Shown piece by piece: positions 21,655 to 49,019 of a DNA stretch of 64,000 bases. The first letter of the stretch is position 1; each line of letters begins with the position of its first letter. Source of the stretch: Planctomycetaceae bacterium (GTDB lineage: Bacteria > Planctomycetota > Planctomycetia > Pirellulales > PALSA-1355); contig PLYM01000194.1 of assembly GCA_003153375.1 (NCBI GenBank), positions 20,879 to 84,878 of the forward strand, read 5' to 3'. The notes below the pieces were generated by a model. The model saw only the letters and a program-made list of their open reading frames with translations, was not told the origin of the DNA and made no database searches. Both the position numbers and the translations under genes were made by a program.

Positions 21655-22701
21655 TCATCTACCTGGCTTCGCTTTGTATCCCAATGCTTCGGCTTGGGCG
21701 AAATCGGCGTGGGCTTTGGCTTTCTCGTCTTTCTGCCAGTACGAGTAGCCCCGAGCATAGAAAGTGTACCCACTTCTCGGATTGATCCCAATTGCCGCTG
21801 TATAGTCGTTGATTGCCCTGTCGTGGTCGCCCTTCTCGCGGTAGGCCCAGCCACGGTTGTGGTACGCGTCGGCATCCTTCGGGTTAAGTAGGACGGCCTC
21901 GGTGAAGTCAGCGATGGCCTTGTCGAATTCACCCTTCTTGACGTAGGCCAAGCCACGATTGTAGTACGTCGTGGCATGTTTCGGATCGAGTCTGATGGCC
22001 TCATCGTAGTCAGCGAAGGCCTTGTCGAACTCACCCTTCTTTCCATAGGCATAGCCCCGCCCACAATAGACTGCGGCATGTCGTGGATTGAGCCGAATCG
22101 ACTCCGTGAAGTCAGCGATCGCCTTGTCGAATTCGCCCTTCTCTTGGTTGGCATGGCCTCGCCCCCAATATGCCTCGGCAGATTGTGGATTGAGTCGAAT
22201 GGCCTCGGTGTAGTCCGCAATCGCCTTGTCGAATTCACTCTTCATTTCATAAATCTTGGCTCGCCCCTGAAATGCTTGAAACAACTTCGGGTCGAGGCGA
22301 ATAGCGTCGGTACAATCAGCAATTGCTCTGTCAAAATCACCCTTCTGAGCATAGACGATTCCTCGGACATAGCATGCCTCGGCACCGTGCGGGTCGGGGC
22401 GATTAGCCTCCGTGCAGTCAGCCATCGCCTTGTCGAGGTCGCCGTTCCTGCCGTGGGAGTGACCCCGCCAGCAATATGCCTCGGCCATCGTCGGATCAAG
22501 CTGTATGGCTTTGTCACAGTCGGCGATGGCCTTGTCGAATTCGCCTTTTCGCAAGTAAGCTTGGCCCCGGCGGGAATACGGCTGAGCGTTATGTGGATGC
22601 AGACGAATGCCTTCGGTGTAAGCCGCGATCGCTCCATCGAAATCGCCTTTGTCCCGCAGCGAATTGCCTTGCTTTGTTGCTTCATCTTCTGGGCTACTCA
22701 T
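21655..22701 (-). CDS. tetratricopeptide-repeat protein (about 9 tandem TPRs)
   Basis: Repeating 'GEFDKAIADYTEAIRLNP...A.AY..RG.AY'. Visibly lower GC than its neighbours. Confidence 0.85.
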   Translation of the reverse strand: MSSPEDEATKQGNSLRDKGDFDGAIAAYTEGIRLHPHNAQPYSRRGQAYLRKGEFDKAIADCDKAIQLDPTMAEAYCWRGHSHGRNGDLDKAMADCTEANRPDPHGAEACYVRGIVYAQKGDFDRAIADCTDAIRLDPKLFQAFQGRAKIYEMKSEFDKAIADYTEAIRLNPQSAEAYWGRGHANQEKGEFDKAIADFTESIRLNPRHAAVYCGRGYAYGKKGEFDKAFADYDEAIRLDPKHATTYYNRGLAYVKKGEFDKAIADFTEAVLLNPKDADAYHNRGWAYREKGDHDRAINDYTAAIGINPRSGYTFYARGYSYWQKDEKAKAHADFAQAEALGYKAKPGR

Positions 22702-34113: not shown

Positions 34114-34146
34114 GCCGGCGTCGTGCCGATACGCACGCTCCCCAAT

Positions 34147-34178
34147 ACTAACCCGACGCGCGAGCGAGGGCTCTTCGT
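34147..34178. repeat. dispersed 32-nt intergenic repeat, copy 2
   Basis: actaacccgacgcgcGagcgagggctcttcgt; compare 3122..3153. Confidence 0.8.
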
Positions 34179-34397
34179 AGTCTTCGTTGCCTCCCTCCTC
34201 GTCCCCGCTCAGCCCACGCGTGTCCATATCTGCTTTGCCTGACTTGCCAAAATGCCGGGCCCCACTTCGGGGCGGCGTTCCGACAGCGATGGTCGTATTT
34301 CATTATTCTTGAATGACTTACGGCATCTGAAACCAACTGGGATCGCCCTGGGTATATCGTAATGAGAGTACCGTTACTGAACTGGTGGGGACTTCGG

Positions 34398-35081
34398 ATG
34401 ACGGCCCAGCAGAAAACGGAGCCCGAGTCACGGTGGATCAACCCGGCCGTGCAGCTTCGTAGCCGAGATAGCCTCGAGCGGATTCTCGGAGCGACGGCAC
34501 GGTTGTTGGCGACGCGTTCGTTCCGCGACATCAAAGTAACCGAAATCGCTCACGAGGCGGGCGCTTCGCCGACTTCCGTTTATGCCCGCTTTGAGAACAA
34601 ACAGGCGTTGCTCGGTGCCCTCTTCGAGCGCCACGCGATCGCTCAGCGTGAATTCATCGGTCAGCTCCTGGACGCCGATCGCTGGCAAGGCGTGCCGCTG
34701 GCAGTGGCCCTGCGTCAGACGTTTCCCGTGATCGTGGCAGGCTATTGCGCGAAGCAGGGACTGATCCGCGCTTTTCTCGAACAAGCCTCCGAAGACGCTC
34801 GCTTTCGGGAGGACTGGTCGGAAGTGGGCAACTTCATCGCGGGCCGCGTGTCGCAACTCGCCTTGGCCCGCCTGTTCGAAATCGATCATCCCAGTCCCGA
34901 ACGCGGGATTCAGATCGTGCTGGGAATCGCCTTCGCCACGCTGGCCCATCAAATCCAGATGCGTGAAATCGACAAACCGCAGATGGACGAAATCACCGAA
35001 GAACTGATTCGCATGATGCTACGCTATATGGGAATTGCCGATGTCTCCACCATCACGGGTGGAAGTCCTGACGAGAGCTAA
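34398..35081 (+). CDS. TetR/AcrR family transcriptional regulator
   Basis: N-terminal HTH 'FRDIKVTEIAHEAGASPTSVYARFENKQALL'. Confidence 0.85.
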   Translation: MTAQQKTEPESRWINPAVQLRSRDSLERILGATARLLATRSFRDIKVTEIAHEAGASPTSVYARFENKQALLGALFERHAIAQREFIGQLLDADRWQGVPLAVALRQTFPVIVAGYCAKQGLIRAFLEQASEDARFREDWSEVGNFIAGRVSQLALARLFEIDHPSPERGIQIVLGIAFATLAHQIQMREIDKPQMDEITEELIRMMLRYMGIADVSTITGGSPDES

Positions 35082-35120
35082 GGACGTTCATCGAATAACC
35101 GAATAGGGAGGACTCGATCG

Positions 35121-36659
35121 ATGTGGTTGCCGCGCCATGGAATCCGAAGCACGCGTTATGCGATTGCAATCCTGCTCTCTATTACCTCGACGGTTGGATT
35201 GGCCTCGGAGCCGTTGGCCTACTATGGATTCGACGTGCAGGACCATTCGGCGGCCGCCCAGGAGGGATTGCAGGAGATCTTTTGCGGCCGCTGCTTTCAT
35301 AACGCTGTTCCACTCGTCACCGCGCGCATGCTGCTCCGCGCCGTAGCTGGCTCGCCGAAGAAGCTGGGCTACGATCCGGACTCTGCCGACGGGCGATTCT
35401 ATGCGTCTGGTCGATTGCCCTCGCCGCCCAACCGGACTTCGGGCGCCGACCCCAGCTTTGGCTTGGGCGAAAGCGTGTTCGTTCGCGACGGTGCGCAACT
35501 GGTCAACATCAATTGCTTCACGTGCCACGCCGGGGTCGTCAACGGCCAGGTTGTGGCCGGCCTGGCGAACAACCACGTGAATCAGTCCGACCCCAAGAAC
35601 TTGCGGACTCGCGGCGACAACTTCGGGCCCTACGCGGTCTGGCGTCTGGGTGCGCAATTGGCCGACCCGGCAAACGAGGGCATGGTCGTCGCCAAGGAAA
35701 AGACGGAACTCGAAACGTTGTTCGAATCGGTCGAACTTCCACCGGTCGATCCGATGCCCTGGTGGTTGATGAAGTATAAGAAACTGGACTATTGGTACGC
35801 CGACGCCGGCATCCATGACGCCGCCAGCTTCTCGATCAATTTCACCACCGCGCATCCTGAAATGAACGCCCATCACGCCGACCACGTCAAGGTCGTCGCC
35901 AAGGCGCTGGCCTTTGCGCGGGAAACACAGTCTCCCTTGTTTCCCAATTCGCTCGACGGCGAACTGGTTCGAAAAGGAGCCGACTTGTTCCACGGTCGCA
36001 CCCCGCCTGCGGAGACCAGAGGCTTCGTGTCGTGCAAAACCTGCCATGGGACCTATACCAGGAAGGAATCGCAAACCGACCTGAACCAGTCGGGTTCGTG
36101 GGCCGTGGCCTACGATTTCTCGCACGTGCTGAGAAATCTGAAAACGGATGGGTCGTATAACGCAACGCTTCAGAAGCTGAAGCCGATCGCGGACCATATC
36201 AACAAACTGGAAGTCTATTTCACGGCCCAGGGAATACCGGAGCTGATACCGCACGCCGCGGTTCCGAGCCAAGACGGCTATGTCGCCCCGCCCTTGGTGG
36301 GCGTCTGGGCATCGGCGCCCTATTTCCACAATGGTTCCGTTCCCACGATCGAGGCCGTGCTCAACTCAGAGACGCGGCCGGAAATCTGGGCACGCGACAA
36401 TCGCGACCCGCATGCCTACGATCTGGAAAAGGTCGGCATGCGCTATCGATCGTTATCGCGCGCCGAATTCGAGCAGAGCGCCGCCGGCGCGGTGGGCAAA
36501 CCGTTCCTCTCGCGGGCCGCGATCGATCACGGCGCCAACTATGACACCAAGGGATTCGGCCACGGAAACTCGGGCCATACGTTTGGCGATCGACTGAGCG
36601 CGGATGAGCGCCGTGCGGTGATCGAATTCCTGAAGAGTCTGTCAGGGCCGGACATGTAG
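35121..36659 (+). CDS. di-haem cytochrome c (cytochrome c peroxidase/MauG-like)
   Basis: Two CxxCH sites (CFTCH, CKTCH) and a CCP-like 'APYFHNGSVPTIEAVL'. Confidence 0.7.
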   Translation: MWLPRHGIRSTRYAIAILLSITSTVGLASEPLAYYGFDVQDHSAAAQEGLQEIFCGRCFHNAVPLVTARMLLRAVAGSPKKLGYDPDSADGRFYASGRLPSPPNRTSGADPSFGLGESVFVRDGAQLVNINCFTCHAGVVNGQVVAGLANNHVNQSDPKNLRTRGDNFGPYAVWRLGAQLADPANEGMVVAKEKTELETLFESVELPPVDPMPWWLMKYKKLDYWYADAGIHDAASFSINFTTAHPEMNAHHADHVKVVAKALAFARETQSPLFPNSLDGELVRKGADLFHGRTPPAETRGFVSCKTCHGTYTRKESQTDLNQSGSWAVAYDFSHVLRNLKTDGSYNATLQKLKPIADHINKLEVYFTAQGIPELIPHAAVPSQDGYVAPPLVGVWASAPYFHNGSVPTIEAVLNSETRPEIWARDNRDPHAYDLEKVGMRYRSLSRAEFEQSAAGAVGKPFLSRAAIDHGANYDTKGFGHGNSGHTFGDRLSADERRAVIEFLKSLSGPDM

Positions 36660-36715
36660 TGCGGGCGGCTGGTGGCGGCGCATACCCGCCGATCTTCAAA
36701 GCAAGGAGCAACAAC

Positions 36716-37186
36716 GTGTCTGATTCGACACTCCACCGGCGAAAGCTGGACTTCAAGAACTGGCCGGAAGTTCTGGCGGACATCGACCACCTTCGCCGCG
36801 CTGGTTACGATCGCGCGGGGAACTGGGATCTCTCGCAAATCGTCGAGCACATTGGAGAAGGCCCGCGAACGGCCTTGCGGGGCAAGAATCATCGGGCCGG
36901 CTGGATGATTCGCAAATTATTGGGCCCGATCGTGCTGCGACAAATCTTGCGCCAGCGACGCATGAAGGCAGGCATCAAGGTTCCCGAGTGGTGGCTCCCC
37001 GGACCCACTCACGACGAGTCCGCCGCCATCAACGCGTTTCGTGCCGATCTCTCGGCATTTCAGCAAATGACGACCGATCCGTTCCCGCATCCCTTCTTCG
37101 GCACGCTCACGAAACAGCAATGGAATGATCTCGCGCTGATCCATGCCGCCCATCATCTCAGCTTTCTGGTCCCCAGAGATCAGTAA
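36716..37186 (+). CDS. DinB-like / DUF1569 family protein
   Basis: GTG start 7 nt after AAGGAG. C-terminal 'HAAHHLSFL' and a size of about 156 aa. Confidence 0.65.
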   Translation: MSDSTLHRRKLDFKNWPEVLADIDHLRRAGYDRAGNWDLSQIVEHIGEGPRTALRGKNHRAGWMIRKLLGPIVLRQILRQRRMKAGIKVPEWWLPGPTHDESAAINAFRADLSAFQQMTTDPFPHPFFGTLTKQQWNDLALIHAAHHLSFLVPRDQ

Positions 37187-37427
37187 GCGTCGCGTTGGGT
37201 TCGCGGCCTTTAGCGTCCGTGCCTTTCTCAGCCAGGTCGGAAGTAGCTCAGGCGTGCCGTGCTAGCGCCCGAGTCGCATGGGGGCGATAGCAGAATATCA
37301 GCTCTCAGATTGATCTTGCCCGAATTGACGCGCGCGGCTTGAATGGTCCGCTGGATGGGCAAAAGCCGAGGTGCTGACGCTCAAAATTGGCTCCAGCGCT
37401 CCCGCAAACTGGAAAGGTGAACGTGCA

Positions 37428-37952
37428 ATGAGCATTCGATTATCACGCTTGGCGACGGGCATGTTGGTTGTCGCGGCAATGGTACTGATGTCTGGCCGCT
37501 GTTGGGCGATCAGGAATGGGCTGGGTCCCTCGAAAGACGAATGGGGATTGAAGTACGACGTGGCGGTCTCCGACGCGGATGGCGACAAGGTCACCGTCGT
37601 GTTTACGCTCCTCGACGAAGGGAGACTGAAACCCTTCTATTCGATCGACCTGGTTGCTTTCAGTCAGCAGACGGATAATCAGGGCGGTCGCACGTATGAC
37701 GTCATGACGCCCATTGAGTTGAAGACGACCGAAGATGGCAAACGCACCGGCCAGGTTCAGATACGCAAGGAATTCGTCAACCGCGCCAAGATTCGCATCA
37801 TCACCCTGATGGTCGACGGCAAGCGACAACCGTCCGGTGGAGCGTTCTATGACATTCCTATTGGAAAGTTCTTGAACAAAACCCCGGCGGCCGCATCGCC
37901 CCTAGCGCGACAGCCCAATGCGGCGCCGTCCGCATCGAAAGTCACCAAGTAG
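37428..37952 (+). CDS. secreted hypothetical protein
   Basis: Signal peptide MSIRLSRLATGMLVVAAMVLMSGRCWA. No domain recognised. Confidence 0.5.
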   Translation: MSIRLSRLATGMLVVAAMVLMSGRCWAIRNGLGPSKDEWGLKYDVAVSDADGDKVTVVFTLLDEGRLKPFYSIDLVAFSQQTDNQGGRTYDVMTPIELKTTEDGKRTGQVQIRKEFVNRAKIRIITLMVDGKRQPSGGAFYDIPIGKFLNKTPAAASPLARQPNAAPSASKVTK

Positions 37953-38302
37953 CAATCGGCGCATGCCTGGCGTCTTGCCTGTGGCCGCCATGATCGGTCG
38001 GCAGGCGACAGCCGCTTGCGCTGTCGTGGCGACCGTGGGCATTTTGGCGATCGCCGCTACGCCGTTTTATTACGGCCCACAAGCCGGTCCGCGCTTCCCT
38101 TTCCGGAAAGCCGGGACAGGTGTCGCTTGAACATGACGACACGATTGCGTACTGGCCGATCACGCCGGCGTGCGCTCCGCTGATAGGAAATTCAGGACTC
38201 CCTGAAAGGGATTGCACGGTCCATGGATTGGAAGGTCGATTGAACTTCTGGCTTGCCGAGCGCGCCAAAGTCCTGATCAGGGGTCGCCCGGCCAATGCCC
38301 CG

Positions 38303-38527
38303 CGACCCGCTCGTCACCCAAACCGTCCGATTCTCAAAGTCCGCTTCGCTCGTCAATTCCTCGCCCGCTCGAACGGTTACCTGTCGACTGCTCGCCGCAG
38401 GATTCGCCAAGACCAGGATTGCACCGGCGGTTCACGTCGTTCGAGAGACGATCGTGCCTCCGATTTCCCACAGCGTGGCTTGTGGCGCGAGATTCCGTCA
38501 AGCCAGCGGTAGGCGCGAGTGCTTAGC
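38303..38527 (+). repeat. diverged direct repeat 'X', copy 1
   Basis: The core 38321..38450 aligns with 45748..45880 at roughly 75-80% identity by eye. Both copies end in 'gtgcttagc'. Confidence 0.6.
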
Positions 38528-38746
38528 TCGCTGCGATCCAGTATCGGTGCGTCGGTTTGTCGGACCGACGCGGGTCAGATTGCGGACCGGACAGTCTTCC
38601 CTGCTTACTCGCGTTCAACGAATGTTCGACCGCTTGATCGATGAGATTGATTAATAGCTACCGACTTTCGCAGAGTCCCTGGTGGCGGACTTAAGATTTC
38701 GCGACTGAAGCGGACGACGCAAGCTGACGTTGGCACGCCGGGTCAG

Positions 38747-39022
38747 CCGCGGTATCAGCGATGGCTTGCCAGGCCGGTGCGAACCGGGCTGCCCGACTCA
38801 AACGAATCAGGGCGCTACGCGATGATGGGGATGGCCCTGCAACAACCCGGCTGTGGAAATGTCCCAGGTTTGAATGCCCAGCACCCGCGCGGGTGACTCG
38901 GGCCGCAGGCGGAGGTCGCCGTGTTCGACGTCGACGAACAGGGGATCGGCGGAGAGGCTGTGAAGCTCGACGCCGTAGCGTTTCTGCTGGTCGATGTGCC
39001 GCTGGCCCCATTGGGGATCGGC
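38747..39022 (-). repeat. 276-bp inverted repeat, copy 1 (3' end of the beta-helix gene plus about 60 nt downstream)
   Basis: Its reverse complement matches 45438..45713 at roughly 90% identity by eye. The encoded peptides are nearly identical. Confidence 0.85.
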
Positions 39023-41146
39023 GGGGCACCAAAACAAGTTGTAGTCGGTCTGGGTGTCTTTCAGGCGGTCGCCGGCGCCGGTGGCAAGGCTCTTGTGCTC
39101 GACGATGGGCCAATAGTCGGCACGCGGCGACCAGACGATGTTGCGCAGGATCTGGGCGCCTTCGATGGGCCAGGTGGGATTGGGTATCGAGATGTAGCCA
39201 TGGACGATGTTGGGTTTGGTGATTGGCCGGCGACTGGGGATCAGGTCGACGATGATGTTGTTGACGACGTGGTTGGCTTCGGTCATCGAGATGCCGGTTT
39301 GGGCGCTGCGGATCTTGTACAACACGTTGCCGTCGATGAGGGTCTCGTACTGGTCGTTGTCGCAGCGGATGCCCGAGGCCACGCCGTCGCCATCGAGATG
39401 GTGAATATAGTTCTGGTAGATACGATTCTCTTTGCCGGTGCCCGAAATATAGATTCCGTTGCCGTCGCCCATGGTTTGCATCACGTCGTGGATGTCGTTA
39501 TGGGCCACGAAGTTCTTGCGGCCGTGCATATACCGTTCGCGGGCCTGCCACCATTCGCGGTGTACCCGGTTCGACCCGCTGGCCGCGCTGGGCAGCGCGT
39601 TGTAGGCCGGCAAGTCGACTTCCCGCGCGCGGAAGGTTTCGTCGGCCTCGCTCGTCCAGCCCGTTCGGCCGCTGACGGTGATGCCTGAGTAGGGCATGTC
39701 GTGGACCAGATTGTGAGTCACCTGGTTTTCGCCGCTTTGCCAGACCATGATTGCGGGCGAGGCCCAGTAAATCTCTCCCACGTGATGCACCCAGTTGTTC
39801 GACACGACGTTGCGTTTGCTCTCGTCTTTCGTGCCGGGGCCGTAGCCGGCGACCAGGATGCCGACGCCTCCGACATGAGCGACCTCGTTGTCGATGACGC
39901 GGTTGTCCAAGCAGGTGAGATCCAGGCGCAGGCCCGTTCCGCTCGTGTCGACGAACCGGCAGGCCTCGACCGTGCATCCCCGGGCGCCCCGCAGACGCAC
40001 CAGCGCGCTCGGCCGATCAAAATGTTCCCACTTGTGCTGGAGTTCTCCGGGCGTGGCGCCATGCCACGGCAATCGCTGGCCGCCGGTGAGAGTGAGCCCA
40101 CGAAACACGAGACCCGTTACGGGCTTGTCGACGGGCCCGTCGTAGTCGATGTTGCCTTCGACGCGCAGCAACTCGGTGAGCAGCGGCACGTTGATGGCGC
40201 CGGAGGGCGCTTCGCGAGGCGGCCAGAGATACAGCTTCCGATCGGTGGCGCCAAAGACCCACTCTCCCGGCTCGTCGAGCACTTCCAGGATGTTTTCCAC
40301 CCAGGCGGTTTCGCTCAGGAATTTCACCCGGCCCATGGTGCGGGAGGCCGGAACCGCTGTCTTGGCCAGACCGGCCTGCTCATCCACTGAGGCCAGAGGC
40401 AACAGGCACATTTCATAGTCGCAGGACGGAATCACGCGGAGCTCCGCATTGCCGAGGTCGGGCCAGTTCTTCATGGCGCCCGAGGGGAAGGCGATTTGGT
40501 CGTGCGGGGTCTTCGCATCGGCGAACGCCACGGGCGTAAAGGGCTTGGACCAGGCCCGCCGCAGACGATTGCGCCCATCGTACAACGTCAGGACGTTCGA
40601 CAAACTCGCGGGAACATCCGCGGTCCACACCGAGTCGCGGGCGTTCTCGGGCAGTAGCGGGGAGGGATGCTGGGGCTTAGTCCAGCCAACGATCGGAACG
40701 GCCGACGTAAAGACTGGGGTCTCGTCGCCGTAGGCAGCATAGGTGATCGTGCCGCTAACAGGCGCCGAATCCTCTAGCGAAAAAACCACGGCCTCCTGGA
40801 GCCGGTACTCACCACCGCGAATCAGCACCAGGATTTCCTGCCGGTCGCCGTGCCGTTTGAACTCCCGAACCGCATCTCGAGCTCGGGCGAGCGTCGCGAA
40901 GGGACCATCGGTGCTCGCAGGATTGGGCTGTTGCAATTTTCCCGACCACCCATCAGATCCATTCACCGCGACAAAGAAGTCCGCGGTGGTTTGCCCCTTC
41001 TCGCCCGAACCGCGAGCGAGGGCGTCGGTTGGCAATCCGGCCAGCAATAGGCCACAGGCCACCAGGGCAAAAAGAAACTGACCCAAGGAACGACGCGAAT
41101 CGTTTTCTGGCCGCCGGGTCTGATGGAGTATGGCGATCTGGGACAT
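38807..41146 (-). CDS. right-handed parallel beta-helix repeat protein (pectate-lyase-fold), secreted
   Basis: 779 aa with a signal/TM segment. Ends in '...ADPLFVDVEHGDLRLRPESPA', typical of this family. Confidence 0.8.
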   Translation of the reverse strand: MSQIAILHQTRRPENDSRRSLGQFLFALVACGLLLAGLPTDALARGSGEKGQTTADFFVAVNGSDGWSGKLQQPNPASTDGPFATLARARDAVREFKRHGDRQEILVLIRGGEYRLQEAVVFSLEDSAPVSGTITYAAYGDETPVFTSAVPIVGWTKPQHPSPLLPENARDSVWTADVPASLSNVLTLYDGRNRLRRAWSKPFTPVAFADAKTPHDQIAFPSGAMKNWPDLGNAELRVIPSCDYEMCLLPLASVDEQAGLAKTAVPASRTMGRVKFLSETAWVENILEVLDEPGEWVFGATDRKLYLWPPREAPSGAINVPLLTELLRVEGNIDYDGPVDKPVTGLVFRGLTLTGGQRLPWHGATPGELQHKWEHFDRPSALVRLRGARGCTVEACRFVDTSGTGLRLDLTCLDNRVIDNEVAHVGGVGILVAGYGPGTKDESKRNVVSNNWVHHVGEIYWASPAIMVWQSGENQVTHNLVHDMPYSGITVSGRTGWTSEADETFRAREVDLPAYNALPSAASGSNRVHREWWQARERYMHGRKNFVAHNDIHDVMQTMGDGNGIYISGTGKENRIYQNYIHHLDGDGVASGIRCDNDQYETLIDGNVLYKIRSAQTGISMTEANHVVNNIIVDLIPSRRPITKPNIVHGYISIPNPTWPIEGAQILRNIVWSPRADYWPIVEHKSLATGAGDRLKDTQTDYNLFWCPADPQWGQRHIDQQKRYGVELHSLSADPLFVDVEHGDLRLRPESPARVLGIQTWDISTAGLLQGHPHHRVAP

Positions 41147-41619
41147 CCCCCTATCCTACGAGCTGGAACCGTCCGTGGAAATTGGCCTTGATGTGAACCG
41201 ATGGTATTTCCTGGTCAAGCAAGAATATCTCCGAGCGGGAAGGCCCGTGACTGAGAATGTTCAGCCACGTTGGAAACATGGACGGGCGAGATAGCGCGAG
41301 CAGTCGGCAGTGAACCGTTCGATCGGGCGAGCAGGGCATGAGCGAACCAGACTTTGAGAATCGAGCGGTATTGGTGACGGACTCAGACGCGGGGCATTTC
41401 TTGGCATTTCTTGTAAGTCATCGGTCTTTGCGGTTACCAATACCTCTGGAATGAGGTTGCGATTTGTTGGTTGACAAAGTCCACCCGTCGCGAGTCACGG
41501 CCTGATTGGACGAGGCTGGCTGAACGAGCCTGGTTGGACGGGGCTGGCTTGTCGATCATGAAGGGGGCGAGAATGCGCCCTCCTGGGATGAACTCTCTTA
41601 CTTGTGCGAGGTCTCGAAG

Positions 41620-43023
41620 ATGAACGGTCCGCGTTGTATTTTGATCGTGCTTTCCATCGCGGTGAACTGCTCGGTTGGTGGAGCGATCGCCTGGGCGCAG
41701 AATCTGACGGATCAATGGGTCGAGAAAGCGGCCGGGCCGTTGGTTGAAAAGCGAATCGCCGATGGGCTGTCGGTCGGTTACATCGAGGATGAGCATTATG
41801 GAATGGTACACCTGGGAAGCGCGAGCCCGGCGGGGAAGAATGCCAACAACTTGACCGTCTATGAGATCGGGTCGATCAGCAAGGTTTTTACCTCACTGTT
41901 GCTGGCCGATGCGGTGGTGCGGGGAGAGATTAAATTGGAAGCGGCGGCGGATGTTGCCAATGAGGCCGGGATTCGGTTGCCGTCGCATGACAGTACGCCG
42001 ATCACATGGGCTGATCTGAGCACGCATCGCTCAGGGCTGCCGCGCCTGCCCACCAATTTGCCGCTGACCGATTTCGTGAATCCGTATCGAGAATACGATT
42101 CGAAGAAGGCCGCGGCGTTCCTGAGCGAATACCAACTGCCTCGTCAACCCGGCGATTCGCAGGAATATTCCAACCTCGGGGTGTCGGTTCTTGGATACCT
42201 AGTCGCGCAGAAAGCTGGCAAGCCCTATCAACAGTTGCTGCGGGAGCGAATCGCCGAACCGCTGCGTATGACCGATTGCACCGTTTCACTGAGCAGCGAT
42301 CAGACGAAGCGGCTCGCCACGCCCCATAATAAAGTCGGCTCTGCCGCATCGCCCTGGACGTTTGCCGACCTGCCGGGCGCCGGCGGAATTCACGCCACGA
42401 TGCGTGATATGATGCGTTTCGCCAAGGCTCACTTGAATCCGCCGACCGGCACGCTCGGCGAGGCGATCGAACTGGCTTGGAAGCAACACAGCAAAGCCGA
42501 CGCATCGGCGCCCGCGATGGGCCTGGGCTGGATGATTGCGCGGGATGGTCAGACTCGTTGGCACAACGGTCAGACCGGTGGATTCCATGCGGCACTCTTC
42601 ATCAATCGCGAGCTCAAGTGCGCGGTCGTCGTGTTGTGCAACACGGCCGTATCCAACGAAATCGATCAGCTGGCGACGCAGTTGATTTTGAAAGCAGCAG
42701 GCCAGGAAGCAAAGCCGGAGCCGAGCGAGGCTTCGGACGGTGACTCGGACAAGCTGGCCATCGATGCGGCGCTGCGCAAACGGTTGGTGGGGCGTTATCA
42801 GTTGACGCCGAGTTTCATTTTCGACGTTCGTGAGGATGACGGGCGGCTGATGGTTGGTATTACCAATCAACCCACGCAGGAGGTCTATCCTGACTCTCCC
42901 ACGAAATGGTCATACCGTGGGGTCGACGCCACGCTCGAATTCAAGCTGACGAAAACCGGTCCCGCCAAGAGCCTGGTTCTCCATCAAAATGGCATCCAGC
43001 AGACTGCTCGCCGAATGAAGTGA
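41620..43023 (+). CDS. secreted serine hydrolase, beta-lactamase (class C/PBP4-like) family with a C-terminal DUF3471-like domain
   Basis: Signal peptide plus SxxK 'SISKVF', YxN 'YSN' and 'WHNGQTGG'. Confidence 0.85.
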   Translation: MNGPRCILIVLSIAVNCSVGGAIAWAQNLTDQWVEKAAGPLVEKRIADGLSVGYIEDEHYGMVHLGSASPAGKNANNLTVYEIGSISKVFTSLLLADAVVRGEIKLEAAADVANEAGIRLPSHDSTPITWADLSTHRSGLPRLPTNLPLTDFVNPYREYDSKKAAAFLSEYQLPRQPGDSQEYSNLGVSVLGYLVAQKAGKPYQQLLRERIAEPLRMTDCTVSLSSDQTKRLATPHNKVGSAASPWTFADLPGAGGIHATMRDMMRFAKAHLNPPTGTLGEAIELAWKQHSKADASAPAMGLGWMIARDGQTRWHNGQTGGFHAALFINRELKCAVVVLCNTAVSNEIDQLATQLILKAAGQEAKPEPSEASDGDSDKLAIDAALRKRLVGRYQLTPSFIFDVREDDGRLMVGITNQPTQEVYPDSPTKWSYRGVDATLEFKLTKTGPAKSLVLHQNGIQQTARRMK

Positions 43024-43084
43024 GCGCATTGAACGATCCGTGTGTCGGCTGTTGGCCTGATCGGTCAGACCGCGAGGTTTTGCG

Positions 43085-43609
43085 TTGCTGGACGAGGATC
43101 ACAAGTCACTCTTCCTGAACTGGCTGGGCGAGCATGGTTCCTCGGTCATGAAGGTGGCGCGCGCCTACACCCTTACCAGCGACGAGTGCCAGGACCTCGC
43201 CCAGGAGATTCTGCTCCAAGCCTGGCGGTCGTTGCCGAACTTCGAGGGCAAGGCCAGCGCGGCGACGTGGTTTTATCGTGTGGCACTCCATACCGCGATG
43301 AATTGGCATCGCAAGGACAAACCGCGCCGAGCCAGGCAGCAACCGCTCGTGGAAGTACAAGTCTTGGCAACCGACGGGGCCGGCAGCGCCGAGCAAGCCC
43401 AGCAGCGAGAGACCGTCGAGCAGCTCTACCAGGCAATTCACCAGTTGCCGAAAACCGATGCCGCGCTCGTGCTGCTGTATCTGGACGAACTGAGTTATCG
43501 GGAGATGGCCGACGTGTTGGGCATCTCCGAAGGCAACGTGGGCGTGAAGCTGAATCGGGCGAAAAAAGTGCTGAGCGAACTGATGAAGGGCCAGTCACAT
43601 GAACAATGA
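43085..43609 (+). CDS. ECF-type RNA polymerase sigma-70 factor
   Basis: Region 2 'DLAQEILLQAWRSLPNFEGKASAATWFYRVALHTAMNWHRK'. Region 4 'LYLDELSYREMADVLGISEGNVGVKLNRAKKVL'. TTG start. Confidence 0.85.
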   Translation: MLDEDHKSLFLNWLGEHGSSVMKVARAYTLTSDECQDLAQEILLQAWRSLPNFEGKASAATWFYRVALHTAMNWHRKDKPRRARQQPLVEVQVLATDGAGSAEQAQQRETVEQLYQAIHQLPKTDAALVLLYLDELSYREMADVLGISEGNVGVKLNRAKKVLSELMKGQSHEQ

Positions 43610-45653
43610 CGGCCTTATGGCCCCTGATACCTTGCAACAAGCCTGGCGGGCGCAATCGTCTCAGACGCGTGTCACGGTCGATCCCGACTTGCTGCTGAAG
43701 GAAGTGCAACGCTCCCAACGAACTTTCCGAGCGACGATCTTCTGGCGAGATTTTCGCGAGGTTGTGGTGGCGATCGTGCTGCTGCCGTACTGGTTTTATG
43801 CAGGCATCACGCACTCATTGCCCTGGACATGGTATCTCACCGTGCCGGCTATTATTTGGGTTGGCGGGTTCGTTCTGGTGGATCGAATGCGCCACAAGCG
43901 GAAGCCGAGTGCGCCGGGTGACCCCCTGCTAGAGAGTGTGAGCGAATCACTGACGCAGGTAGAGCATCAAATTTGGTTGCTGCGCAACGTCTTCTGGTGG
44001 TATCTATTGCCGTTCACCATTTCCATTCTGGCATTCTTTGCCCAGGTTACTTTGCAGGTCTCTCGAAACTGGTTGGAGGCTCTTGCCGCCGGGGGCTTTT
44101 CATCCGTCTTTCTTTCGGCGCTTTATTATTTCATTGATTACATCAATCAACGCGCCGTACGAACGCAGCTTGAGCCGCGACACCGGGAGTTGCTCGCGCT
44201 GCTCAAAAGTCTCAGCGACGAAACGACCAGCGAGGACTCGCTGAAACGCACGCAGAGCGTGGATAGCCCAAGGATTGTCAGGCGATGGCTCATCGTCGCT
44301 GTCTTGTGCCTCGTGACCCTCGTGGTGATTGTCCTGGCAAGCGGGTTGTTCGATTCCAGCTATGACGGGCCTCCTCGCAGCAGCGGCCCCGCCGGCGCGT
44401 CGCTGGGGAAATTGGTCACCGATCTGCGCAAGCAGAAGCATCTCGTCGGCCTCGCCGCGATGGTGACGGTCGACAGGCAAGTCGAGGCTGCCGCGGCCAG
44501 CGGGGAACGGAAGAAAAGCAGCGGGGTGCCACTGGAGATCAGCGATCGCTGGCATCTGGGAGGGATTAGCAAGAGTATCACGGCCACGATGATCGCGCGC
44601 TTGGTCGAATCGGGTCGGATGCAGTGGTCAGACACCGTCGGCGAGATTTTTCCCGAGGCCGCGACCCATGAAGAATGGAAGCCGGTCACGCTCAGGCAAC
44701 TACTGACGGACACAGCGGGCGCGCCAGCGAACTTCCCCAAAGCGGTTTGGCGCCAACGGCCCGCGCTGGGTGCCGAGTGTACCGAAGCGCGTCGAGAGGC
44801 GGTGTTGAATGTGATGGCGGATCAACCGGCATACCCACCGGGTAAAAAGTTTGCCTACTCGAATGTCGGCTACACCATTGCGGGGGCGATGGCCGAGAAG
44901 GTGACCGGCGCCACTTGGGAAGACCTGGTGAAACGCGAGGTGTTTGAGCCTTTAGGACTCACAGGTGCCGGATTTGGCCCGCCCAAGAGTGTGGACGAAA
45001 CGCTCCAGCAGCCGCGCGGTCACCGAGCGGTCCTGGTTGGGAAAGTCTCGGTGGATGACCAGGCCGATAATTCTCCCATCATTTCTCCCGCGGCCACCCT
45101 TCACATGACGCTCGATAATCTCTGCACGTTCGCCACGGAGCACCTGCGCGGCGACCGAGGCGCGGGCAAGCTGCTCTCGGCCGAGACCTACAAACGGCTG
45201 CACACACCTGAGATCAGCCAGTATGCCTGCGGCTGGATCAGGAACGAACCGAGCGACGAAATCCCCTACACGGCCTACTGGCACAATGGCTCGAACACGT
45301 TCTGGTACGCACTGGTAGCGTTCATCCCCGAAAAGAATATGGTGATCGCCGTCACCTCGAACGATGGCGACGTTGAGCAGGCCGAAGCAGCCGCCTGGGA
45401 GATCGTGAGGGCCAGCGTGAAGCAATTCAACGTCGCAGCCGATCCCCAGTGGGACCAACGCCACATCGACGACCAGCGCCGCTACGGCGTCGAGCTTCAC
45501 AGCCTCTCCGCCGATCCCCTGTTCGTCGACGTCGACCACGGCGACCTCCGCCTGCGCCCCGAGTCCCCCGCGCGGGCGCTGGGCATTCAAACCTGGGACA
45601 TTTCCACCGCCGGGCTGTTGCAGGGGCATCCCTATTACCGCGCAGCGCCATGA
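43599..45653 (+). CDS. multi-TM protein with extracytoplasmic beta-lactamase-family domain and a grafted beta-helix-protein C-terminus (putative anti-sigma/sensor)
   Basis: Overlaps the sigma gene by 11 nt. About 5 hydrophobic helices in aa 50-260. Motifs 'SKSI' (SxxK), 'YSN' and 'WHNGSN'. The last 72 aa are nearly identical to the end of the 38807..41146 product. Confidence 0.8.
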   Translation: MNNDGLMAPDTLQQAWRAQSSQTRVTVDPDLLLKEVQRSQRTFRATIFWRDFREVVVAIVLLPYWFYAGITHSLPWTWYLTVPAIIWVGGFVLVDRMRHKRKPSAPGDPLLESVSESLTQVEHQIWLLRNVFWWYLLPFTISILAFFAQVTLQVSRNWLEALAAGGFSSVFLSALYYFIDYINQRAVRTQLEPRHRELLALLKSLSDETTSEDSLKRTQSVDSPRIVRRWLIVAVLCLVTLVVIVLASGLFDSSYDGPPRSSGPAGASLGKLVTDLRKQKHLVGLAAMVTVDRQVEAAAASGERKKSSGVPLEISDRWHLGGISKSITATMIARLVESGRMQWSDTVGEIFPEAATHEEWKPVTLRQLLTDTAGAPANFPKAVWRQRPALGAECTEARREAVLNVMADQPAYPPGKKFAYSNVGYTIAGAMAEKVTGATWEDLVKREVFEPLGLTGAGFGPPKSVDETLQQPRGHRAVLVGKVSVDDQADNSPIISPAATLHMTLDNLCTFATEHLRGDRGAGKLLSAETYKRLHTPEISQYACGWIRNEPSDEIPYTAYWHNGSNTFWYALVAFIPEKNMVIAVTSNDGDVEQAEAAAWEIVRASVKQFNVAADPQWDQRHIDDQRRYGVELHSLSADPLFVDVDHGDLRLRPESPARALGIQTWDISTAGLLQGHPYYRAAP

Positions 45654-45713
45654 TTCGTGCGCGTCGGGCGGCGCGGTTCACACTGGCCCGTCCGACCATC
45701 GCTGATATCGCGG
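45438..45713 (+). repeat. 276-bp inverted repeat, copy 2
   Basis: See 38747..39022. Confidence 0.85.
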
Positions 45714-45736
45714 AAGATCGAGATTCCAATCGATAG

Positions 45737-45901
45737 ACCCTCACCATAACCGTCCGATTCTCCAAATCCGCTTCGGTCGTCCCATCCTCGCCCGCTCGAA
45801 CGGTTGACTGCCGACTGGTCGCAGCATAATTCGGCAATACCAGGATTGGTACCGCGCGGTTCACGGCGCCCGAGAGACTATGGGAGGGGCTTGTGCTTAG
45901 C
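45737..45901 (+). repeat. diverged direct repeat 'X', copy 2
   Basis: See 38303..38527. It starts about 25 nt after inverted-repeat copy 2. Confidence 0.6.
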
Positions 45902-46061
45902 CGCCATCGCCTTGCGACCCAAATCCAACCCGCCTGTGCGAACAATCATACCAGTTCAAGCGGAACCGGCTTTCGTGAGGGTATTCAAAGTCGATTGCCA
46001 TTCAGATATAAAACATGGCGTTTCTCAGGGATCGCGCGGGCAACACTGGGGAGAACGAAAG

Positions 46062-46391
46062 ATGAAAAATCTGAAAGCACTTGCGGTTTTCTCCGTCACT
46101 TTCGGAGTCTTGGGCGGCTACATGGTAGCGACCGGCACGATTTCATCGCATTACGGAGCCGATGACGGTAAATCCGCTGCAAAAACAAACGCACCGCAGA
46201 TCACCGGCGTACCGGGTTCACCTAGCGCCACGGAGACCCTCCGTGGGAAACAAATCCCCGCGCCGCCGCTGCCGTTTGGTGGCGTGATCAAGGAGACCCT
46301 CAAGGGATCCAAGACGTGGTGGCCACCGCGCATCGTGCCACCCCAGGACGCGCCGAACGTCCAGCTGATCATGACTGACGACAACGATTAA
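46062..46391 (+). pseudogene. arylsulfatase N-terminal fragment (truncated)
   Basis: Signal peptide followed by '...PPQDAPNVQLIMTDDND*'. The ORF stops right at the metal-binding 'DD' block, where sulfatases normally continue for more than 350 aa. Confidence 0.65.
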
Positions 46392-46618
46392 CCAACGGAG
46401 CGTAGCAGTTGGATCCGCGACAAAAAGCCCATAAACACACGGATTCAACGACTCCACGCCATCCGCGAAACTTCGGCCAATCGCGGCGGTTTTAGGGGGA
46501 TTAACTACACTCTGCTACACGAAGTGGTTCCCCTCGGCGGCACTGGGTGTAGGCGATGCGACCGACGTTCGCTTCGATCACCGGTGGTGTTGAATCATGC
46601 TTGGTCTCCAGCCCCCCT

Positions 46619-46660
46619 CAAGGAGCTCCCCGGACGAGTGCTCGTCGGGGGAGCTCCTTG
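46619..46660. terminator. 19-20-bp-stem hairpin downstream of the minus-strand micropeptide ORF
   Basis: caaggagctccccggacgag / ctcgtcgggggagctccttg with one mismatch. There is no U-tract, so it is not a canonical intrinsic terminator. Confidence 0.6.
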
Positions 46661-46708
46661 CTGATTACCCCAACGTGCCTTGTCGAATGACCACGAGAAA
46701 CCGCTGAG

Positions 46709-46849
46709 CTATTGGCGGTTAAAACGCCCGCGGCAGGCGCAGCGCCGTGGACACCGACAATCGTTGCGGCGGCGATGTCCGGTGGGAGTGCTCAGCCATG
46801 CAACCACGGCCAGCACGATTAAGATCAAGACGACGATAAACATGTACAT
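46709..46849 (-). CDS. candidate 46-aa membrane micropeptide with Arg/Cys-rich tail (below the ORF-track size cutoff)
   Basis: My own translation: MYMFIVVLILIVLAVVAWLSTPTGHRRRNDCRCPRRCACRGRFNRQ*. AGGAG sits 4 nt upstream of the ATG. The ORF begins 82 nt downstream of the sigma-like gene on the same strand. Confidence 0.35.
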   Translation of the reverse strand: MYMFIVVLILIVLAVVAWLSTPTGHRRRNDCRCPRRCACRGRFNRQ

Positions 46850-46931
46850 TTGGCTCCTGAGTGGGTTATTGTTGGAGGCCTGGATTTCCTAGCGATTACC
46901 GCCTTGGAACGATTGCCGAGAGGCCTGCGGC

Positions 46932-47585
46932 TCACTGTGCAGTTGGCTGATACGGGCACTGGAAACACTGAACCGCTGGGCGTATTTCCTGGAAGCTCTC
47001 CCAGCTCGTCTTCAACTCGGCGCGGATCTGACTGATCCTCGCCGAGCTCAACTTGAACTGCTGGGCTACATCGCCCGTGGTTTCACCCCTGGCCAGTGCT
47101 TTGGCAATCCGGCAATTTCTCTGGGTGAGTGAGCGAAGCCAGGTCGCCACGTCAATTCGCGCTGCCGCGATGTCCGCCGGCGTGGCACGCCGATCTTCAA
47201 CCAGTACGGCGCGCCATTCACCTTGCACTTCGTCAAACATGTCCAGCCGTTCAACAACAATCCCAAAGTCTGCATGAGCCTTTGGCGAAAGGACGTCACG
47301 ACGGTTTGGTTTCGTGCCGACTTGTCGACCGGCAATAACCTGGCGAATCGCATAATTGGCGAGCGGCGTGGCGTAGGTGACGTCGGCCTTGCCGCGGTGG
47401 ACCAGCGCTACAAATGTGCAAAAGGCATTGGCCTCTACCTCCTGCACGAGTTCGTCTCTGAGTTCGGGACGAAATCGGTGAAATGCTCGGTGCGCCTGAC
47501 GGCGAACTCTTGGCAGCATTTCGAGAAACCGTTCGTGTTCTTGCGACTTTATGACCTGATGCGGTTTCTTGATGATCGTAATCAC
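46932..47585 (-). CDS. sigma-70-like / HTH protein (regions 2- and 4-like)
   Basis: GTG start 8 nt after AAAGGAGG (MITIIKKPHQ...). C-terminal HTH 'TTGDVAQQFKLSSARISQIRAEL'. The upstream part of the 304-aa ORF looks non-coding. Confidence 0.6.
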   Translation of the reverse strand: MITIIKKPHQVIKSQEHERFLEMLPRVRRQAHRAFHRFRPELRDELVQEVEANAFCTFVALVHRGKADVTYATPLANYAIRQVIAGRQVGTKPNRRDVLSPKAHADFGIVVERLDMFDEVQGEWRAVLVEDRRATPADIAAARIDVATWLRSLTQRNCRIAKALARGETTGDVAQQFKLSSARISQIRAELKTSWESFQEIRPAVQCFQCPYQPTAQ

Positions 47586-47785
47586 GGGGACGACCTCCTT
47601 TGGGAAAGAGACCGCCCACCCGGGCGGTCGTGTAAAGAAACACAACCGCCCTGGCACACTGCCTGGGCGAACAGGGACACTCTTCAATCGGGCGCCACGA
47701 GTGCAAGAAAGAGCCCTCAGGTCAGCGCACGGCTGTATTCTGAGGGCCTCTTGGCGACTGGCACCAGGTGCTAGTCGGGCGCCGA

Positions 47786-47893
47786 GATCGACCTGTAATT
47801 CCGGGCTGGCGAGGCGTAGGCCTGCAGCGTGATATGAGTGGTGCACCCGCCAGTGAATCGTACAATGTGCAACGGCGCAAGCTGGCCGGCACG
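47786..47893 (+). repeat. ~110-bp direct repeat, copy A
   Basis: gatcgacCTgtaatt...catatgagtgg...gtgaat.g.acaatgtgc.acggcg...ggccggcacg aligns with 48098..48208 at roughly 75-80% by eye. Confidence 0.7.
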
Positions 47894-47923
47894 GACGTCC
47901 GCGAAGATGTCGGCTTGGCGAAC

Positions 47924-48055
47924 TTCTATGTTCGGATCCGCAAGCGGTCCAGCGCCAAGATCGCTCGTGCCCCTGTTGCGCGGAAGTTGGGGGAAATCTG
48001 TTGGAAGCGACTGCTTCGCTGGCAGCAAGCGCATGATGTGTTTACTGCGGCCTGA
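47924..48055 (+). pseudogene. IS110-family (DEDD) transposase C-terminal remnant
   Basis: 'FYVRIRKRSSAKIARAPVARKLGEICWKRLL' resembles the conserved C-terminal 'FY.RL...GK..KVALVAVARKLL.I.W.ML' block. No catalytic N-terminal part is present. Confidence 0.45.
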
Positions 48056-48097
48056 GATATTAAGAGGAGCACAACTGCGACGCGCTGAAGTCGGCGG

Positions 48098-48208
48098 GAT
48101 CGACGCGTAATTCTGGCACGGTGAGGCGTCAGCCTGCACCGTTCATATGAGTGGGAGTCCCCCGCCGGTGAATTGCACAATGTGCGACGGCGTATGCCGG
48201 CCGGCACG
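48098..48208 (+). repeat. ~110-bp direct repeat, copy B (contains the 12-nt palindrome tgccggccggca)
   Basis: See copy A. It lies immediately downstream of the transposase remnant's stop. Confidence 0.7.
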
Positions 48209-48701
48209 AATGGCTGACTATGAGCGCGCTTGATTCAAGCGACCAAACTCGGCTCCCGAAAAGCTAGGTGCTCCCCATCCTATATGCCAGGAAAACCACG
48301 AATCATTAAGCTGGGGCGCACTTTGCACGACGGTGCGGTTCAGCTACTTCACGCGTCGTGCGCACCACTGCAACGTGAAGTGCGCTTGCCGTTGGTAGAT
48401 GCGGACCTTCGTCGGGCTGCGGATGCCTTGAGGAAAATCGGTCACCCGCTGAAGTCTGTGACGAGCCGCGTAACGGGTTGTCCAGTCGGGCTTCTTGCCT
48501 GCAGAGACGGAAACCGCCTGCCGCAAGGCGCCCATATCGATCGACGCGAGCTGGTGATCCATAGTCTGTTGGGGTGCCATACCGCTTCAGGTCGTGACTC
48601 GCAATTGTCGTGTGCTAGCCCCTAATCAAGCGAACTCTTTGCGTTGAGTTGCGGAGAAGTTTGGGGAAAAATGAAATCCCTCGGCGTTTCTGCGGTGTTT
48701 C

Positions 48702-49019
48702 ATGAGTGTCGAAACTCGGAACATCACAGCCACGGAGGGATTTCAAGTGAAGACCAGCATACGACGACGACTGGGAGTGGTGTACTCGATCAATCAGGAC
48801 GGCAGCGGCTTCCAGCAGCTCGAGGCCTTTGCGGGCCCCAACGGCAACGTGCCCACGGGCCACCTAGTGGCCGTGGGTTCGAACTTGTACGGCGCAACGG
48901 AGAGTGACGGACCCACCCTGCCCGAGCCCAGCGCCCTCGTCCTGGCCGTGTTGGGATGTGCGGCGCTAGTTGGATGCGGCGTTCGAAATCGCAGGCGCTC
49001 AACTGCTGGCGCTGGCTGA
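48702..49019 (+). pseudogene. orphan C-terminal fragment of a PEP-CTERM protein
   Basis: 'VYSINQDGSGFQQLEAFAGPNGNVPTGHLVAVGSNLYGAT' looks like a choice-of-anchor-type repeat. It is followed by 'LPEPSALVLAVLGCAALVGCGVRNRRR'. There is no signal peptide. Confidence 0.45.

Follow-up and report, generated by a model that had tools for sequence, protein, structure and literature searches.

The block, its inverted repeat and the fusion junction

Contig PLYM01000194.1 of a Planctomycetaceae bacterium contains, in the 64-kb stretch analysed here (64,000 nucleotides, hereafter the window), a 6.4-kb block of genes enclosed by the two arms of a long inverted repeat. The block holds a leftward gene for a right-handed beta-helix protein (BH) and a rightward operon made up of a beta-lactamase-family gene (BL1), an extracytoplasmic function (ECF) sigma factor gene and a second beta-lactamase-family gene (BL2). 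Copies of a further repeat, X, lie outside both arms, and the N-terminal fragment of a sulfatase gene follows on the right (Table 1). An earlier description of this DNA, made from its letters alone (the sequence-only reading), had seen in this arrangement the formal signature of an inserted or rearranged unit. We compared the window with itself by repeat search, BLASTN and shuffle-tested gapped alignment, and assigned gene identities by Pfam and NCBIfam searches, with the search for transposases and recombinases covering the open reading frames (ORFs) tested between 34 and 50 kb. The locus was also compared with 12 related loci, labelled L001, L004 to L012, L015 and L016; L004 comes from a relative that is ~92% identical at the nucleotide level, and the nucleotide identities of L015 and L016 are 82.5% and 94.6%. 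Pfam returned Beta_helix, two Beta-lactamase-family proteins and an ECF sigma factor, the gene content that had been read from the sequence, and no transposase or recombinase domain in the ORFs tested, in agreement with the earlier statement that none lies inside the block.

The arms of the inverted repeat, T1 on the left and T2 on the right, are 276 nt long, 88% complementary and 6415 nt apart. BLASTN aligned them without gaps at 87.7% identity (E 2e-97), bearing out the positions and the identity of roughly 90% that had been assigned to them by eye; the window holds no other long dispersed inverted repeat. Within each arm, 216 of the 276 nt (78%) are the last 72 codons of a gene, and the remaining 60 nt are 3’ flank past its stop codon. 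The two arms are the 3’ ends of two different, unrelated and outward-facing genes, BH and BL2. Their encoded tails differ at 8 of 72 residues. Divergence between the arms is 9.7% in the coding part and 21.7% in the flank, and 12 of the 21 coding differences fall at third codon positions, a pattern that fits translation of both tails, with too few differences to prove selection on T2. The longest perfect run shared by the arms is 56 nt, and a folding test for a terminator in the copied 3’ flank detected no significant structure.

The tail belongs natively to BH and came to BL2 secondarily, because every fetched BH ortholog has it and 119 BL2 homologs do not. At all seven of the seven BH orthologous loci fetched, the 3’ end of BH matched the right arm from 45438-45440 onward. 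The BH family is large and well conserved (1313 matches), and the tail belongs to the family consensus. The 120 listed matches to BL2 comprised one self-match, which alone covered the whole query, and 119 others covering 51-94% of it, mostly 88-90%; since coverage stops there, no listed BL2 homolog reaches the tail. Native BL2 C-termini in these homologs read KQFNVGADPPRREPLQGAD or AAWEIVKASAKQFNVGADPPRREPLQGAD, each followed by a stop codon, and the BL2 ortholog in L001 is 606 aa long. Judged from the sequences compared, the BL2-BH chimera is known from this genome only.

The point at which the two genes meet can be located to the nucleotide. Homology between L015 DNA and the window extends from 42534 to 45447, that is, 10 nt into the right arm, and homology to BH begins at 45438. 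The end of BL2 homology in L015, and likewise that in L001 (at 45429), marks the junction of the fusion at the right arm’s inner end. The overlap at 45438-45447 is the 10-nt sequence GCCGATCCCC, which stands in the context GGA GCC GAT CCC CCA in native BL2 and CCC GCC GAT CCC CAA in BH. As GCCGATCCCC encodes Ala-Asp-Pro in both genes, the chimera was in frame automatically. BL2 lost its last ~10 native codons (ending PRREPLQGAD and stop) and gained 69 BH codons, the BH stop codon and BH 3’ flank. Two features looked for in a templated duplication are therefore present at the locus: a microhomology at the novel junction, and an intact donor beside an altered recipient, with T1 still joined to the BH body and to its native flank and the end of BL2 replaced.

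Comparison of the outer flanks bears on the polarity and the age of the copy. On the left, homology to L004 passes through the outer end of T1 to 38708, and the 3’ flank of BH in L012, aligned in register, matches the T1 flank at 10 of 11 positions from +17 to +27 (p 2e-5). By this match, T1 has native context to either side, which makes it the parent copy. The same L012 flank matches the T2 flank at 10 of 14 positions from +1 to +14 (p 9e-4), where T1 and L004 share altered bases, and T2 retains the ancestral residues R, A and Y that were lost in T1. The copied stretch probably runs to ~45727 and nearly touches X2 at 45736. Since the copy predates the flank change specific to T1 and L004, the duplication would date to the common ancestor with the ~92%-identical relative, at or before the split from L004. 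In the coding tail, T1 and T2 are 90% identical and either is 84-85% identical to the L004 tail, which is fast-evolving, with 28 unique changes; the informative sites number five for grouping T1 with L004, two for T1 with T2 and four for T2 with L004, in agreement with a duplication of that age.

Table 1. Features of the block and stretches shared with L004 (window coordinates)
Feature	Position	Strand or orientation	Remarks
X1, longest X copy	38294..38540	+	38294-38395 common to X3; 38304-38540 common to X2
Spacer between X1 and T1	38541..38746	.	38708-38746 is native BH 3’ flank, common to L004 and in register with L012
T1, repeat arm 1, parental copy	38747..39022	-	Last 72 BH codons and 60 nt of flank
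BH, 779-aa right-handed beta-helix protein	38807..41146	-	Pfam Beta_helix; predicted GH141-like fold
Donor-side microhomology GCCGATCCCC	39013..39022	-	Ala-Asp-Pro in BH
X3, third copy, inside the block	41296..41398	-	~150 nt upstream of BH start
BL1, 473-aa beta-lactamase-family (AmpH/class C-like) serine hydrolase	41602..43023	+	First gene of BL1-sigma-BL2
ECF sigma factor, 174 aa	43085..43609	+	End overlaps BL2 start by 11 nt
BL2, 684-aa chimera, serine hydrolase	43599..45653	+	~250-aa N-terminal part, beta-lactamase-fold domain, 72-aa BH tail
T2, repeat arm 2, derived copy of BH 3’ end	45438..45713	+	Copy probably extends to ~45727
Fusion junction, microhomology GCCGATCCCC	45438..45447	+	Ala-Asp-Pro
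X2, direct copy of X	45736..45921	+	22 nt past detectable T2 end; at most ~8 nt past its probable true end
Sulfatase gene N-terminal fragment, 109 aa	46062..46391	+	Ends PNVQLIMTDDND and stop; cut at breakpoint 46378
L004 2030-3152	33010-34132	same	
L004 3182-3844	37246-37908	same	
L004 5071-5206	37902-38037	same	
L004 5937-7921	48363-46378	inverted	
L004 9936-12435	41211-38708	inverted	Contains BH
L004 12912-22339	49010-58468	same	

X copies and rearrangements in related genomes

The direct repeat formed by X1 and X2 is real, as the sequence-only reading had it, and a third, inverted copy inside the block (X3) had been missed. All three copies lie within 7.6 kb, in the orientation order direct, inverted, direct. 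X1 and X2 share an ungapped core (38314-38421 against 45741-45848, 84% identical) and were paired by BLASTN over 141 nt (83%, E 2e-35). A gapped match with a 55-nt indel extends over 38304-38540 and 45736-45921; because only 1 of 300 shuffles equalled it, the ends previously given for X, 38527 and 45901, are reasonable. X3 is 79% identical to X1 (E 1e-18) and 80% identical to X2 (E 4e-17), and a 36-nt core is nearly invariant in all three. X1 is the most complete copy, with a 5’ extension common to X3 and a 3’ extension common to X2. Of the spacers between X and the arms, put earlier at about 220 and 25 bp, the right one measures 22 nt and the left one 206-294 nt, depending on where X1 is taken to end. 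X3 adjoins the conserved upstream region of BH, whose end corresponds to ~41289 in both L008 and L012; X2 ends 141 nt upstream of the start of the sulfatase fragment, and no gene follows X1.

X is non-coding and unstructured, and no test indicated a function for it. The three copies have one open frame in common, but their variable sites are spread 8/7/7 over the codon positions, and we rejected a coding relic. A structured RNA was rejected as well, the three-copy consensus fold being without compensatory pairs; the single folds were no better than those of shuffles (z = +2.2, +1.0 and -0.4), and Rfam, searched with gathering thresholds for the whole window and with E<=1 for 38.0-46.5 kb, gave no match in either case. 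X lacks the ECF-type motif GAAC-N14-19-CG[TA]C, as does the DNA upstream of the sigma operon in each of three genomes (the window, L001 and L015), and a search of 37-47 kb found no sigma-70-like promoter. A shared 12-mer at 43002, considered as a hint of an ECF promoter, was a chance match. X was not found at any of the 12 related loci, and a metagenome pattern scan for its core returned two chance, unrelated matches only. Because the divergence among X copies (79-83% identical) is close to that of the non-coding part of the inverted repeat (78% identical), the two may be of similar age.

Two observations concern the sequence 3’ of BH in L012. A region at ~4686-4858 of that locus is weakly similar to window 38433-38596, the 3’ part of X1 together with the spacer (2 of 300 shuffles). 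The similarity may be due to chance; if real, it would mean that X-like sequence was once native 3’ of BH. An ancestral order BH-X-sulfatase was considered and rejected: the sulfatase gene that follows BH in L012 is unrelated to the fragment in the window, and X is absent there.

The window and L004 differ by a ~10-kb inversion with breakpoints in 38.0-38.7 kb and 48.4-49.0 kb, outside the inverted repeat. L004 has an IS630-like insertion sequence (IS) element between the second and third shared stretches, at a position equivalent to window 37902-37908, and an IS66 element between its two inverted ones. Window 41211-46378, with X3, the BL operon, T2, X2 and the sulfatase fragment, is replaced in L004 by a 5’-truncated IS66. 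L016 shares the sulfatase fragment and its junction at 46378, and has an IS4-like transposase upstream of 46001. With a ~10-kb inversion, breakpoints occupied in sister genomes by IS630-like, IS66 and IS4-like elements, and a truncated sulfatase gene, the region is a rearrangement hotspot.

The genes of the block have separate histories in relatives. BL1-sigma-BL2 is a conserved unit by itself in L001, and L015 has the 3’ end of BL1, the sigma gene and BL2. Orthologs of BH are 81-93% identical, and the neighbourhood of BH differs in every other contig fetched. Because BH and the BL operon are unlinked elsewhere, the 6.4-kb block is not a unit moving together. The synteny check against relatives, proposed earlier and run here, placed no boundary at 38747 or 45713; the boundaries with L004 lie at 38708, 41211, 46378 and 48363/49010.

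Breakpoint 46378, which corresponds to L004 7921 and L016 5125, is exact to the nucleotide and has different partners. In the window and in L016 it abuts the truncated sulfatase N-terminus (PNVQLIMTD, then DND and stop), and in L004 it abuts the interior of IS66. As a transposon terminus it was rejected, no matching terminal inverted repeat having been found. The inversion junction regions (window 38037-38708 and 48363-49010 against L004 5207-5936 and 12436-12911) have no detectable mutual homology, which indicates that sequence was replaced as well as inverted at both breakpoints.

Origin of the inverted repeat

We consider it probable that the inverted repeat arose as an old microhomology-mediated duplication, of the template-switch type, of the end of BH within a rearrangement hotspot. 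In such a duplication, ~276-290 nt (the last 72 BH codons and at least 60 nt of 3’ flank) would have been copied once, non-reciprocally and in inverted orientation, and the copy joined to the 3’ end of BL2, 6.4 kb away, within the 10-nt microhomology GCCGATCCCC. The last ~10 native codons of BL2 would thereby have been replaced, giving a chimeric 684-aa ORF that now ends at the BH stop codon. A second patch, a copy of X, would have been added almost directly after T2, its source being X1, ~200-300 nt from the BH tail. Both patches could have been made by microhomology-primed template switching or illegitimate recombination in replication or repair, resembling break-induced replication mediated by microhomology (MMBIR), fork stalling and template switching (FoSTeS), tandem inversion duplication (TID) or origin-dependent inverted-repeat amplification (ODIRA). 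The ~10-kb inversion and IS-associated deletions would have reshuffled the region later. A distance of 8-22 nt separates T2, the inverted copy of 38747-39022, from X2, which is direct and corresponds to 38304-38540. We infer the template-switch mechanism, and T2 and X2 may have originated in a single event. Of the earlier suggestion of an old segmental duplication followed by inversion, the old segmental duplication was essentially right, the locus being a rearrangement scar.

Template-switch models (MMBIR, FoSTeS, ODIRA) produce inverted copies where microhomologies or short inverted repeats occur (PMC4689423), and TID is known from Salmonella (Kugelberg et al. 2010, PMC2870977, as cited in PMC4689423). 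The likeness to these systems lies in a nearby sequence apparently copied in inverted orientation, a join at a 10-nt microhomology and a donor left intact, with what may be a second patch, templated a few hundred nucleotides away, directly after it and X copies in the order direct, inverted, direct. Unlike the fresh events of such systems, however, this is an old product, ~12-20% diverged, in one natural genome. It also differs from TID and ODIRA in that the patches are small and no genes are triplicated, the full structure needs extra deletions, and one junction is verifiable. Chimeric genes made by 3’-end replacement or partial duplication offer a further parallel, since here too an in-frame C-terminus, a stop codon and a 3’ flank come from another gene; the donor, in contrast to typical chimeric fusions, is the C-terminal end of a beta-helix enzyme and not an autonomous domain.

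Several points weigh against a template-switch duplication. Microhomology can be checked at one junction, L004, the close relative, has the segment deleted, and which X copy is the parent is not established. No single-event model gives all the junctions, at least three being needed: reciprocal inversion at the microhomology, staggered-break inversion, and tandem inversion duplication with deletions were each tried and each leaves at least one junction unexplained. The tail of BL2 may be under selection, and so be more than a passive scar, because the repeat has diverged less in its coding part than in its flank. Finally, labels such as MMBIR are not provable from an old, diverged product.

Other origins were weighed against the same evidence. 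A duplicative inversion with staggered breaks, taking in the BL operon and the body of BH, would have duplicated the BH tail at both ends and left T2 in the original downstream context of BH, with a new outer junction at T1. It would explain why the arms bracket exactly the BH body and the BL operon, why the T2 flank from +1 to +14 is like that of native BH in L012 (10 of 14), and why the BL2/T2 junction lies at a microhomology, and L004 shows that inversions happen in the region. We nevertheless think it rather unlikely, because the outer flank of T1 also looks native, by L004 to 38708 and by L012 at +17 to +27 (10 of 11, p 2e-5); the remnant of the native BL2 3’ end expected beside 38746 is moreover not recognisable. 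Were the arms instead conserved paralog ends, BH and BL2 natively sharing a C-terminal domain, perhaps homogenised by gene conversion, the coding part of the repeat should be more similar than the flank with third-position changes dominating, as is found, and the 90% identity of T1 to T2 in the coding part, against 84-85% to the L004 tail, would be in keeping. Yet the tail is absent in all 119 other listed BL2 homologs, the native BL2 ends are known and different, the similarity runs at least 60 nt beyond both stop codons, and the L004 tail is simply fast-evolving, with its 28 unique changes. Gene conversion between paralogous 3’ ends, another candidate put forward earlier, is refuted as the origin by a BL2 family without such an end, and natively shared ends are highly improbable; later conversion tracts between T1 and T2 may have formed.

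The idea of an inserted unit, in the form of a non-autonomous mobile element or cassette with the arms as terminal inverted repeats (TIRs), X1 and X2 as flanking direct repeats and an enzyme encoded elsewhere, draws on the formal layout of direct repeat, inverted repeat, genes, inverted repeat and direct repeat, in a plastic region where relatives have IS630-like, IS66 and IS4-like elements at nearby breakpoints. This order of repeats is all that the block has in common with TIR-bounded and composite transposons, including those like miniature inverted-repeat transposable elements. Its arms are not non-coding recognition ends but the 3’ ends of the cargo genes, 78% coding, and the sequence is native to every BH ortholog. 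X1 and X2 do not behave as target-site duplications either, being 186-237 nt long, 83% identical and unequally spaced from the arms, with a third, inverted copy inside (100-240 nt over the three copies). Relatives have BH and BL1-sigma-BL2 apart from each other and lack both the repeat and X, and no presence/absence boundary or polymorphism with L004 falls at the repeat ends. Further copies were sought and not found in the window, the 12 related loci and the metagenome pattern scan, and the ORFs tested have no transposase domain. The mobile-element reading was not borne out, and we give it hardly any credence. A functional design, with X as promoter or operator of a regulon of the block’s ECF sigma factor and with the repeat, or the pairs X1/X3 and X3/X2, as programmed inversion sites, would suit the placement of X3 ~150 nt upstream of BH and of X2 141 nt upstream of the sulfatase fragment, the nearly invariant 36-nt core and the ECF sigma gene within the block. 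Against it, no gene follows X1, X is missing upstream of BH in all orthologs, and the ECF-type motif (in X and, for the window, L001 and L015, upstream of the sigma operon), a sigma-70-like promoter (in 37-47 kb) and a recombinase domain (in the ORFs tested) were all sought and not found; inverting any of the pairs, moreover, would give no useful change in the facing of genes and flanks. We regard such a design as very doubtful.

The arms could nonetheless be invertible without any dedicated system. By the substrate requirements of RecA, the 56-nt perfect run within these diverged 276-nt arms could support a rare homologous inversion, of RecA type, of the 6.4-kb block, which would only exchange the two tails and flip the block. 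The invertibility claimed in the sequence-only reading is possible to this extent, but the only inversion seen against a relative breaks outside the repeat. Invertons, shufflons and inversions by homologous recombination resemble the locus in that inverted repeats flank a gene block and a close relative has an inversion in the region; unlike invertons and shufflons, it has no site-specific recombinase in the ORFs tested, and its repeat is long, coding and 12-21% diverged.

A template-switch duplication, if this is what took place, left BL2 with a foreign 72-aa C-terminus and made an in-frame chimeric gene that would have lasted from a time before the ~92%-identical relative split off. With its junction readable at nucleotide resolution, the locus offers a clean natural example from the Planctomycetota of microhomology-mediated inverted duplication. 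It also carries a caution, since genes enclosed by an inverted repeat, with direct repeats on the flanks, are not always part of a mobile element. It is an ordinary, unusually well-resolved rearrangement scar and opens no long-standing question. There is a slim chance that more is involved: the tail could be functional and under selection, a BH C-terminal cap having passed to what is putatively the ECF sigma factor’s sensor partner, with the X copies forming a lineage-private module that links BH, the sigma operon and the sulfatase gene as a regulon or switchable unit. Were that so, the locus would be a natural case of a bacterial sensor rewired through exon-like shuffling at a microhomology.

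Other features of the window

An AlphaFold model of BH, with a predicted local distance difference test score (pLDDT) of 89, had as its closest structure the GH141 enzyme BT_1002 (5MQP, E 2.6e-29, 20% identity), and the modelled fold is GH141-like. The tail was modelled with a pLDDT of 89-98 over most of residues 701-770, as a helix at 713-722 and short strands. In BL2, the N-terminal ~250 aa had been taken as membrane-spanning in the sequence-only reading.

A 3.1-kb stretch to the left of the block, window 34132-37246, is absent from L004, which has 30 nt there. Its genes encode a TetR regulator (34362-35081), a RoxA-like di-haem cytochrome c (35121-36659) and a DUF1569/DinB-like protein (36659-37186). 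Within the inverted 46378-48363 segment, the ORF at 46932-47846 on the minus strand weakly resembles ECF sigma factors (TIGR02937 E 8e-5; GerE E 4e-3). A 40-nt direct repeat of 75% identity pairs 41530-41569, upstream of BL1, with 43120-43159 at the 5’ end of the sigma gene and is probably due to chance. Elsewhere in the window, at 21804-22644, an ORF contains eight tandem units of 102 nt (34 aa), the length of a TPR repeat, which are 67-80% identical to the reference copy.

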